A DNA stretch of 64,000 nt from a virus: IMG/VR virus record IMGVR_UViG_3300044970_001685; one strand, written 5' to 3'. Numbering within the stretch: the stretch's first letter is position 1; the number at the start of each line of letters is the position of its first letter. Below the pieces are notes generated by a model. It saw nothing but the letters and a program-made list of their open reading frames with translations. It did not search any database and was not told the origin of the DNA. Shown piece after piece: positions 6,078 through 45,803 of the stretch. The position numbers and the translations under genes were made by a program.

Positions 6078-6104
6078 GGAATTCTCATAATTCTTAACAT
6101 TGCT

Positions 6105-6212
6105 CACACCCGCTAACCGAGACCTATGGGTGTATAAATTACGTCTCTCATACCCAGTCTGAGGGTGACTGGGGAATAGTATCACCACCATTTCCCTGAT
6201 GGTCTTACTACT
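6105..6212 (+). ncRNA. Structured psbA leader, PhotoRC-II-like cis-regulatory RNA
   Basis: Pairings ACACCC/GGGTGT, GAGAC/GTCTC (pseudoknot), CCCAGTC/GACTGGG, ACCAT/ATGGT directly upstream of phage psbA. Confidence 0.7.
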
Positions 6213-45211: not shown

Positions 45212-45266
45212 ACTGTATCGCATTATACAGTGTAAACTTGCTATATACTTTCAATAGGTCTATAAT
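45212..45266 (+). promoter_or_regulatory. NtcA-type box plus sigma70 promoter
   Basis: acTGTA-TCGCATTA-TACAgt (GTA-N8-TAC at 45215-45228); TTGCTA-17-TATAAT. Confidence 0.7.
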
Positions 45267-45273
45267 GACCTTA

Positions 45274-45324
45274 CGTTCATTCGCTATTTGCGAATAGCGA
45301 ACGGAAGTAAGCCGACTCGGAACG
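45274..45324 (+). ncRNA. Glutamine riboswitch-like aptamer 1 (glnA/Downstream-peptide family)
   Basis: CGTTCA-[TTCGCTATT/AATAGCGAA stem]-CGGAAGTAAGCCGAC..GGAACG. Confidence 0.75.
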
Positions 45325-45328
45325 AAGC

Positions 45329-45500
45329 CGTTCATCTATGGAAGCATTTTTTTTAACTTGCCTTCAAGCTAATTTTATCATTGGAAGAGTAACTACTCAT
45401 CCAAGATTAGATGCCCAGCAAAAAAATGATATTGTTTGGGAAGTAAAGCAAGTTACAAAAAAAGGTTGTTTCATAGACGCAAAAGCCGACTGAAGGAACG
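45329..45500 (+). ncRNA. Glutamine riboswitch-like aptamer 2 with an ORF inside its stem-loop
   Basis: CGTTCA-TCTATG...CATAGA-CGCAAAAGCCGACTGAAGGAACG. Confidence 0.65.
45338..45493 (+). CDS. 51-aa ORF embedded in aptamer 2 (MEAFFLTCLQ...GCFIDAKAD)
   Basis: Hand-translated; open from the ATG in the 5' stem strand to the TGA in the 3' core. Confidence 0.6.
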   Translation: MEAFFLTCLQANFIIGRVTTHPRLDAQQKNDIVWEVKQVTKKGCFIDAKAD

Positions 45501-45533
45501 CTCTTTAATTTAAAAACCTAAGGAGAAAACCTA

Positions 45534-45671
45534 ATGTCTAAAGTAGTATATCGCGGCGTTGAATACGATACGCAAAAGCGTTTGGAGTATCAACAGCAGA
45601 TGATGCAGCAACCCCAACAATACAACGAAACCTATCGTGGTGTTAAGTTTGTAAAGGAGGGGCATAAGTGA
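45534..45671 (+). CDS. DUF4278-like small protein (45 aa)
   Basis: MSKVVYRGVEYD...TYRGVKF; AAGGAG RBS; downstream of glutamine aptamers. Confidence 0.8.
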   Translation: MSKVVYRGVEYDTQKRLEYQQQMMQQPQQYNETYRGVKFVKEGHK

Positions 45672-45772
45672 TGAATACTTATTTTGTGCGTTATCTTAAA
45701 ACAAAAGCAAAGAAGGAAAAACTTCTAAAAGCGGCTCAAATTAATATGGCAATGCAACCACAAGTTGCTTGA
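45671..45772 (+). CDS. 33-aa basic peptide (MNTYFVRYLKTKAKKEKLLKAAQINMAMQPQVA)
   Basis: TGATG coupling; ends just before a terminator. Confidence 0.6.
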   Translation: MNTYFVRYLKTKAKKEKLLKAAQINMAMQPQVA

Positions 45773-45775
45773 AGT

Positions 45776-45803
45776 AAAGGAGGGTTGATCCCCTCCTTTT
45801 TTT
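45776..45803 (+). terminator. Terminator with an embedded -35 (TTGATC)
   Basis: AAAGGAGGG-ttgatc-CCCTCCTTT followed by a T tract. Confidence 0.8.

Follow-up and report, generated by a model that had tools for sequence, protein, structure and literature searches.

Glutamine riboswitches and reading frames in structured RNAs

The type-I glutamine riboswitch (glnA RNA motif, RF01739) is known, for example, from the gifB/IF17 leader of Synechocystis. In type-I aptamers, the base that follows the CG (G23) pairs with the base after helix P1 (C60) on glutamine binding, and this G23-C60 pair is combined with an anti-Shine-Dalgarno (anti-SD) sequence in an ON-switch model (PMC6212724). The ligand contacts in the solved structures are C1, G2, G22, C58 and G59 (PMC6698751). 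Here, a related element is described from the virus record IMGVR_UViG_3300044970_001685 of IMG/VR, analysed as a stretch of 64,000 nucleotides (nt) and referred to as the window. The element starts at position 45274, and one of its hairpins encloses a complete open reading frame (ORF) of 51 codons. It has the P1 helix CGUUC/GAACG, the junction CGGAAGUA, the segment GAAGGAACGC, a G23-C60-type pair and the ligand-contacting bases in common with the type-I riboswitch (PMC6212724), and its pocket bases agree with those of the Ren et al. 2015 crystal structure in the account given by PMC6698751. It also precedes a putative DUF4278/IF17-like gene and has a plausible anti-SD after P1. In contrast to the type-I riboswitch, the aptamer in the window is split, its helix P3 is closed by a permuted core of ~190 nt rather than by a tetraloop, a gene is present in P2, and the element stays under the Rfam gathering score.

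The two-aptamer glycine riboswitch is an example of a tandem riboswitch. Glutamine "doublets" have been published in a list as separate units with several expression platforms (PMC9481103). The window element resembles such tandems in having two ligand-pocket-like cores in one leader, by which cooperativity or a sharper response would be possible, whereas its cores are nested and share one P3 instead of standing side by side with separate P1 helices. A further relative is the glutamine-II aptamer (Downstream-peptide motif, RF01704), which can be made from two separate strands brought together by glutamine (PMC6698751). The inner core of the window element shares the CGCA junction, the GGAACGG tail, the absence of an E-loop and the pocket bases with this class, but it does not have the type-II pseudoknot helix P2, and the match to RF01704 is weak (18 bits in the phage Syn1).

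ORFs in the loops of structured RNAs include the homing-endonuclease genes of group I and group II introns, the tag ORF of tmRNA and the ORFs of dual-function small RNAs. As in these systems, a whole frame occupies a loop of a functional RNA fold, and there is competition between its translation and the folding; here, the host RNA is instead a metabolite sensor, and the ORF overlaps the stem and the core at both of its ends and does not lie free in a loop. Classical leader-peptide attenuation also links the translation of a short leader ORF to a regulatory RNA structure. A similar interplay between upstream ORFs and riboswitches has been reported for the B12 riboswitches of Mycobacterium tuberculosis (Kipkorir et al. 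2024 and D'Halluin et al. 2023, as cited in 10.1101/2024.07.19.603033). In those cases, the ORF lies downstream of the aptamer in the expression platform and encodes a regulatory peptide, whereas the ORF in the window lies inside the aptamer and belongs to a conserved, folded protein family. Earlier papers cover the glnA and Downstream-peptide aptamers, including tandem arrangements and examples from cyanophages (PMC2864571, PMC6212724, PMC9481103, PMC9964418, PMC9004378). None of these papers mentions an interlocked fold or a reading frame within the aptamer.

A conserved gene inside an aptamer hairpin

The window derives from a freshwater-type, T4-like cyanophage and is most similar to S-SRM01, DSL-LC02 and DSL-LC03, which infect freshwater Synechococcus. 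Two glutamine-riboswitch-like units follow each other in it, and the second contains the hairpin with the ORF:

45335..45477, + strand: inner P2 hairpin around the ORF, with a predicted basal-pair probability of 0.998 and covariation in relatives
45338..45493, + strand: nested 51-codon gene with Cys8 and Cys44, identified from the ORF list, a phrog_504 match and comparison of homologues

The sequence CGTTCA (45329-34) is followed by TCTATG (45335-40), and CATAGA (45472-77) is followed by CGCAAAAGCCGACTGAAGGAACGC (45478-45501). In a preliminary description of this DNA, TCTATG and CATAGA were proposed to form an inner stem around about 130 nt. This stem is present and is longer than proposed: TCTATGGAA (45335-43) pairs with TTTCATAGA (45469-77) in nine contiguous base pairs (bp), including one G-U, and 125 nt are enclosed. 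The nested ATG occupies stem positions 4-6 in the 5' arm, and the stop codon is the TGA of GACTGAAGG (45491-93), which covers the last base of a P3 strand and the first two bases of GAAG. The coordinates thus agree with the earlier claims that the start codon is in the 5' strand of the stem and that a 51-residue ORF with two cysteines ends at the TGA of the core. The stop falls in the core because the RNA consensus CU(G/A)AAGG supplies it; ORF-less elements carry this consensus too.

Related elements were collected from IMG/VR with a pattern for the 3' core, which gave 120 loci, and with a second pattern for unit 1 and the linker, which gave more; together, these make 152 distinct elements. 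Individual related loci carry numbers with the prefix L. When genome contigs were searched by pattern, the full element was found for 1/120 loci among the matches listed, and chance matches were abundant. The hairpin that follows the second CGTTCA has a bimodal length of either 11-27 nt or 138-214 nt. The combinations of the outer and the inner hairpin are short/long in 73 elements, as in the window, short/short in 39, long/long in 27 and long/short in 13.

In 83 distinct long hairpins, positions 1-5 of the stem are paired in 100, 100, 100, 100 and 90% of cases, and 3-5 standard pair types occur at positions 3-5, among them C-G, U-A and U-G pairs at position 3, C-G, A-U, U-A and U-G pairs at position 4, and A-U, U-A, U-G and C-G pairs at position 5. 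Variants of the stem include UCUAU/AUAGA, UCCCA/UGGGA, UCCUUA/UAAGGA and UCCUCA/UGAGGA. The interior of the hairpin is more stable than the background, with a minimum free energy (MFE) z-score of -2.57 compared with -1.08 in distant controls; this is an excess of stability, and no conserved fold is claimed. The coding interior favors closure of the stem: the predicted basal-pair probability drops from 0.98 to 0.79 when the interior is shuffled, and the natural sequence has the higher value in 77/80 loci. An internal GGAAGUAAAGC (about 45442-45452) that resembles a junction was dismissed as a chance occurrence, its nucleotides not being conserved in relatives.

The frame from the ATG in the arm to the stop in the core is intact in 93/100 distinct long hairpins, with UGA as the stop in 76 and UAA in 17; among the other seven, five stop slightly early, one stops later and one has no ATG. 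Both the codon-level conservation and the stem covariation that the preliminary description had proposed as checks are therefore found in homologues. Of the first 85 long hairpins, one has an open +1 frame and none an open +2 frame. The ATG is located 3-5 nt into the 5' arm in 82 of the 83 distinct long inner hairpins. All length differences between the ORFs are multiples of three, and two cysteines are the sole invariant internal residues among 87 proteins; Cys8 and Cys44 of the window align with these two columns. The entropy at codon positions 1, 2 and 3 is 1.47, 1.02 and 1.68. For 13 close pairs, the pooled ratio of nonsynonymous to synonymous substitution rates (dN/dS) is ~0.34; only close pairs are informative, as the all-pairs values (median 0.75) are near saturation, with a proportion of synonymous differences (pS) of ~0.53.

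The encoded protein matches the phage protein family phrog_504, in the window with an E-value of 3.2e-6 over residues 5-49, in Syn1 with 5e-26 and in P-SSM4 with 6e-16. The same insert and ORF are present in S-SRM01, DSL-LC02 and DSL-LC03, with substitutions mostly at third codon positions; they also occupy this site in the marine phages P-SSM4 and Syn1, whose annotation calls the ORF hypothetical protein T4-GC 430. With the Syn1 protein as the query, tblastn detects the ORF in 306 genomes of cyanophage isolates. Loci were also gathered regardless of the RNA, using protein-only patterns (ETV[KR]ES[VT]P and one other). In all 61 distinct loci obtained in this way, CGTTCA and the core flank the ORF (for one locus, after trimming of an overlong ORF call), unit 1 is upstream in 59 of the other 60, which are flanked directly, and no member of the ORF family outside the riboswitch was found among the 61. 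AlphaFold, using the 87-sequence alignment, predicts a two-helix hairpin with a mean predicted local distance difference test (pLDDT) score of 88. A Foldseek search of this model against the PDB gave generic two-helix matches only (best E-value 0.83), and a protein atlas search gave only unnamed clusters. A link of the two-cysteine protein to PirA or CP12 was considered and rejected, as no support was found. The ORF also does not belong to the leader peptide or attenuator class, since its product is conserved at the protein level (dN/dS, invariant cysteines and a confidently modelled fold). The nested ORF is, judged from this conservation, a real and widespread gene of phrog_504, and its nesting in an aptamer hairpin is beyond chance.

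Two interlocked glutamine-aptamer-like cores

The strands of the two units, and the sequence with which their 3' end pairs, are as follows:

45274..45278, + strand: 5' strand of outer P1, CGUUC; pairs with 45496-45500 in the nested model, supported by covariation of the neighboring long-range pair, and the helix is also present in the unconstrained MFE structure
45280..45301, + strand: outer P2 hairpin, UUCGCUAUU-UGCG-AAUAGCGAA; short in the window phage
45302..45309, + strand: outer junction CGGAAGUA with the 5' half of the E-loop; matches the RF01739 consensus, G45304 being the G23 equivalent
45310..45317, + strand: P3 strand a, AGCCGACU; cross-unit pairing with 45484-45491, with covariation
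45319..45324, + strand: GGAACG, strand of inner P1 (GAACG at 45320-24); pairs with CGUUC at 45329-33, the hairpin being present in the MFE structure
45325..45328, + strand: linker AAGC, loop of inner P1; A45325 is at the usual G site of the inner long-range partner
45329..45334, + strand: inner P1 strand CGUUC plus A; from the sequence and the MFE structure
45478..45483, + strand: inner junction CGCAAA; G45479 is the G22 equivalent and C45480 the inner long-range base
45484..45491, + strand: P3 strand b, AGCCGACU; also the codons for Ala-Asp and the first base of the stop
45492..45500, + strand: GAAG (3' half of the E-loop) and 3' strand of outer P1, GAACG; matches the RF01739 consensus GAAGGAACGC
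45501..45507, + strand: C45501 (C60 equivalent) and candidate anti-SD CUCUUUA; pairs with UAAGGAG in the MFE structure
45519..45525, + strand: downstream Shine-Dalgarno region UAAGGAG; from the sequence and the MFE structure

Covariation and consensus matches indicate that the two units interlock into an outer canonical type-I glutamine aptamer and an inner circularly permuted core, with one shared P3. The outer aptamer consists of 45274-45317, the 5' half of unit 1 (CGUUCA, P2, CGGAAGUA and P3 strand a), together with 45484-45501, the 3' half of unit 2 (P3 strand b, GAAG, GAACG and C). The inner core stands at the other end of the shared P3 and is made up of GGAACG, a short loop, CGUUCA, the ORF hairpin as its P2, and CGCAAA. 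In this core, the GAACG strand of P1 takes the role of the P1 3' strand and supplies the equivalents of C58 and G59, which contact the ligand in the type-I aptamer (PMC6698751). The equivalents of all five glutamine-contacting bases (C1, G2, G22, C58 and G59) are kept in both cores, and glutamine binding by them is predicted.

The E-loop first separates this arrangement from a pair of ordinary aptamers. Unit 1 has AGUA and no GAA before its GGAACG; unit 2 has GAA, but CGCAAA instead of CGGAAGUA. Each unit is therefore without one half of the E-loop. A single fold with P1 CGUUC/GAACG and the junction ACGGAAGUA plus GAAGGAACGC is obtained only by joining 45274-45317 with 45484-45501. The long-range pairs give the same picture. 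Across units, the outer pair (G45304-C45501 in the window) is Watson-Crick in 152/152 elements (G:C in 33 and C:G in 119), and the inner pair in 149/152 (C:G in 147, G:C in 2 and C:A in 3), whereas the alternatives within units are Watson-Crick in 119/152 each, with 33 mismatches each. P3 also covaries across units. AGUCG occurs with CGACU, neither strand of which folds on itself, and AGUCA occurs with UGACU; in the 8-nt type of P3, the end pair that joins the 3' base of strand a to the 5' base of strand b is U:A in 58, G:C in 76 and A:U in 16 of the 152 elements. In S-SRM01, the pair at the other end of P3 changes from A:U to C:G; the UGA is lost, and the ORF becomes four codons longer and runs into the anti-SD.

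The same comparison was made with the 39 ORF-less elements. The nested model has 94.6% of its positions paired there, with a covariation score of 0.251 against 0.086 for shuffled alignments (0/500), far over that of slid controls. Under the tandem model, each long-range pair is mismatched in 12/39 elements, as are the P3 end pairs inside the units in 30/39 and 19/28. For the window element, the predicted energy of the nested fold is more favorable than that of the tandem fold by 5.6 kcal/mol. The "aptamer 2" of the preliminary description, an independent second aptamer, has thus to be given up, as covariation assigns its halves across the units.

Standard covariance models do not recover this element. 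At the gathering score, Rfam reports no riboswitch at the locus (the threshold of RF01739 is 35 bits); a permissive scan detects unit 1 alone (30.8 bits, E-value 1e-4, cut-off 35), and unit 2 goes undetected by RF01739 because of the 125-nt loop. In the ORF-less phage S-CREM1, RF01739 aligns the units separately with 33.5 and 20.4 bits, and the authors of that genome reported one 99-nt match of 44 bits across both units (PMC9964418). A covariance model built from the 39 ORF-less elements did not bridge the 125-nt loop and split the window element into misaligned matches of 18 and 15 bits.

Two further observations concern the helices. In most variants, the shared 8-bp P3 contains two symmetric A-C/C-A mismatches (45312/45489 and 45315/45486 in the window), which are seen with AGCCGACU, with GGACGACG opposite CGCCGCCC and with AGACGACG opposite CGCCGCCU, while U-A or A-U is found in some loci; the mismatches may be protonated wobble pairs or tertiary contacts. 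The hairpin of UUCGCUAUU, a loop and AAUAGCGAA is near-identical across distant phages (45280-45301 in the window, 1478-1499 in L004 and about 621-642 in L006). In the window it forms the outer P2; S-CREM1-type loci have it as their inner P2, and in Syn1 it lies within a longer P2. Such sequence conservation is unexpected for a supposedly variable hairpin.

A second nested gene in the outer hairpin of relatives

In 40/152 elements, the outer P2 is also long (190-234 nt) and contains an ORF, which the window does not have. This ORF has 61-75 codons and belongs to phrog_6471 in P-SSM4. Its start lies 3-6 nt from the beginning of the arm, and its end is reached either within the 3' arm or at the AAGUAA of the junction. 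It is intact in 40/40 elements, and the other two frames are closed in all 36 examined. The inner and outer ORF families are homologous over their Cys-to-Cys core (hhalign 96%, E-value 2.8e-9), one ORF subfamily is found in either hairpin, and neither family has a match in Pfam. The outer-hairpin ORFs of the freshwater type (L042, L053, L071, L093, L105 and others) begin with MTKALLLLAWVPLLSVSTP, which resembles a signal peptide, and their two-cysteine core might be exported and disulfide-bonded.

Proposed mechanism and alternative explanations

The preliminary description suggested mutually exclusive outputs or a translation-coupled switch. That folding and translation are mutually exclusive follows physically from an ATG in the stem and a stop in the core. 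Initiation at AUG 45338 requires inner P1 and the P2 arm to be single-stranded, so folding and translation exclude each other. Elongation over the last eight codons unwinds the 3' arm of P2, the inner junction and the shared P3, by which translation blocks both cores, and a ribosome that terminates at 45491-93 covers the outer E-loop and the P1 3' strand and thereby disrupts the outer core. The folded RNA in turn hides the start codon, and on this one RNA, translating the nested gene and folding the two cores necessarily compete. The start codon in the stem arm, a linker GGAG that accompanies the ORF only and an interior that favors closure together suggest that this coupling is used. The GGAG is a Shine-Dalgarno sequence that the linker forms as GGAACGGAG in 33/77 ORF-bearing and 0/34 ORF-less loci; it is composed of the end of inner P1, the inner long-range G and two loop bases. 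From these sequence features, we infer that the arrangement would serve as a regulatory switch.

The best explanation, held with about as much belief as doubt, is that positions 45329-45500 make up the inner half of a nested double glutamine aptamer heading a small early operon with reciprocal outputs. Glutamine would stabilize the fold and lower translation of the nested gene. By engaging C45501, it would also free the downstream Shine-Dalgarno from the anti-SD. Low glutamine would then favor production of the nested protein, and high glutamine that of the IF17-like protein. C45501 begins the sequence CUCUUUA, which pairs with UAAGGAG in the MFE structure and is kept in freshwater-type loci; as modelled, this downstream pairing would fit the published ON-switch model. 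A more elaborate version of this explanation is possible, with doubt outweighing belief. In this version, the inner core would be an OFF switch for its own nested gene, whose Shine-Dalgarno is made of the long-range G and the P1 end, and the outer core an ON switch for the IF17-like gene. The two sites would communicate through the shared P3, ribosome traffic would add memory, and the phage would choose between two small proteins according to the nitrogen status of its host.

Several observations weigh against the nested double aptamer with reciprocal outputs. In the window, the inner long-range pair is C:A (C45480/A45325), as in only 3/152 elements, and the nested ATG has no good Shine-Dalgarno before it, only a weak GAAG; the inner core may therefore be a weaker sensor here. 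This core also has no AGUA/GAA E-loop, and ligand binding by it is only predicted. RNAalifold found no consensus interior structure among 21 freshwater-type ORF hairpins. The anti-SD CUCUUUA is not universal, as DSL-LC02-type and marine leaders differ. Close phages share the riboswitch with or without the ORF (for example, L068 and L016), so the ORF is dispensable for the switch. Finally, the sequences are phylogenetically related and were partly gathered with patterns that fix some bases, so the element counts are not independent events.

These points bear on the other readings of the locus. The ORF could be a passenger gene in a permissive P2 loop, with overlaps that reflect genome compaction, a riboswitch that controls the DUF4278 gene only, and tolerated interference from translation. 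P2 is not part of the ligand pocket, short hairpins occur in 39/152 elements, including close relatives of ORF-bearing ones, and the stop in the core is set by an RNA consensus that ORF-less loci share. In addition, either P2 hairpin can host the ORF family, as expected of a permissive insertion site, and many ORF-bearing loci, the window included, have no clear Shine-Dalgarno. The position of the ORF is less easily explained in this way, as the ATG falls in the first 3-6 nt of the arm in 82/83 inner and 40/40 outer hairpins and never deeper with its own leader, the family is never found outside the riboswitch (61/61 loci), and the linker GGAG occurs only alongside the ORF. A passenger gene is, on this evidence, somewhat doubtful and still keeps substantial weight, because of the C:A pair, the weak Shine-Dalgarno, the ORF-less close relatives, the non-universal anti-SD and the unconserved interior. 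An improbable third reading places translation first: the ORF would act like a leader peptide that is translated during transcription, before the 3' arm exists, and a ribosome terminating at UGA 45491-93 would sit on the 3' strand of outer P1 and on the first part of the anti-SD and open the downstream Shine-Dalgarno, so that output of the DUF4278 gene would depend on both ribosome traffic and glutamine. The anti-SD follows the stop at a distance of 8 nt, holding 45476-45506 single-stranded gives a predicted fold in which the Shine-Dalgarno region is unpaired, and, by geometry, the outer aptamer is unable to form until the whole ORF is transcribed. The distance of 40 nt from the stop to the next ATG is nevertheless long for classical coupling, and the leaders of marine relatives differ, with lengths of 28-63 nt.

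Two further readings can be given little credit. Independent tandem aptamers, the second of them self-contained and carrying the ORF in its P2 loop, would agree with the CGUUC...GAACG present in each unit, with the separate Rfam alignments of the S-CREM1 units and with the treatment of glutamine doublets as tandems in the literature (PMC2864571; PMC9481103). This reading is already disfavored by covariation and appears very improbable: the within-unit long-range pairs mismatch in 33/152 elements for each unit against the near-complete pairing across units, the within-unit P3 end pairs are mostly unpaired in the ORF-less elements, P3 strands of 5 nt are unable to fold within a unit, and AGUA and GAA are divided between the units. 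Least probable of all is an untranslated insert, in which the hairpin would be an RNA spacer or an extended helix and the open frame incidental. The interior is indeed more structured than the background, but it has no conserved RNA structure, and the frame kept in 93/100 hairpins, the multiple-of-three indels, the invariant cysteines, the dN/dS of 0.34, the protein-level homology of the two hairpin ORF families and the AlphaFold model all argue for a translated product.

The cassette and its surroundings

The element is part of a small cassette that is bounded by two terminator-like hairpins (45163-83 and 45776-99) and contains, in order, a GTA-N8-TAC box, a promoter, the two glutamine-riboswitch-like units, a Shine-Dalgarno and the gene of a 45-residue protein with YRGV motifs. 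Its features outside the riboswitch are as follows:

45215..45228, + strand: NtcA-type box GTA-N8-TAC, upstream of the promoter; from the sequence
45238..45266, + strand: sigma-70-like promoter TTGCTA-17-TATAAT, with 10/12 consensus matches
45534..45671, + strand: DUF4278-like (IF17-like) protein of 45 residues with two YRGV motifs; Pfam and phrog matches
45668..45772, + strand: ORF of 34 residues whose start overlaps the stop of the DUF4278-like gene (TGATG); from the ORF list
45776..45799, + strand: intrinsic-terminator-like hairpin that closes the small operon; from terminator-like hairpin prediction

The GTA-N8-TAC box is present within 100 nt upstream of 113/146 related elements, compared with 2/146 control stretches. 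In the window and these related elements, it lies ~50 nt upstream of the riboswitch, and its centre is near -50, the classical position being -41.5; these features suggest an early phage operon under the control of the host NtcA. In most related loci, a hexamer resembling a -10 element ends 7-10 nt before CGTTCA, and the predicted transcript start should be a few bases before the riboswitch.

The protein encoded at 45534-45671 matches DUF4278 in Pfam with an E-value of 0.0017 and 19.1 bits, which is under the cut-off of 25.3, and phrog_5049 with an E-value of 1e-10. A gene for a YRG protein is found downstream of nearly every related element listed. The motif KxAQ(L/I)xMAM of the 34-residue ORF is the C-terminal part of one fused YRG protein in S-CREM1 and in several IMG/VR loci, and the ORF and the DUF4278-like gene look like a split or fused gene pair.

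Other structured RNAs were also observed. The known cyanophage cis-regulatory motif PhotoRC-II is present at 6095-6187 of the window with 83 bits, well over the gathering score. In P-SSM4 (L005, 1-105), a manA RNA (82 bits) is directly upstream of the riboswitch cassette, so that two structured RNA leaders adjoin. Several marine loci (L084, L021, L056, L015, L034, L065 and L051) have an extra module of ~45 nt between the riboswitch and the Shine-Dalgarno, which consists of ACGGAUC, a hairpin and GA(G/A)AAGGU... and may add another structured element to the expression platform.

Significance for cyanophage biology

Riboswitch aptamers are treated as compact non-coding units, and here a whole conserved gene is located inside one. 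This layout occurs in hundreds of cultured and uncultured cyanophages and is missed by standard Rfam scans. Many of the listed "tandem glutamine riboswitches" may be one interlocked fold with two pockets, which would be a new architecture for cooperative or dual-output sensing. The locus also offers a concrete and testable case of translation against ligand sensing on one RNA, and it places two orphan families of phage proteins, phrog_504 and phrog_6471, in a genomic context. Phage infection would be linked to the nitrogen status of the host by the NtcA box, the predicted glutamine sensor and the IF17-like protein.

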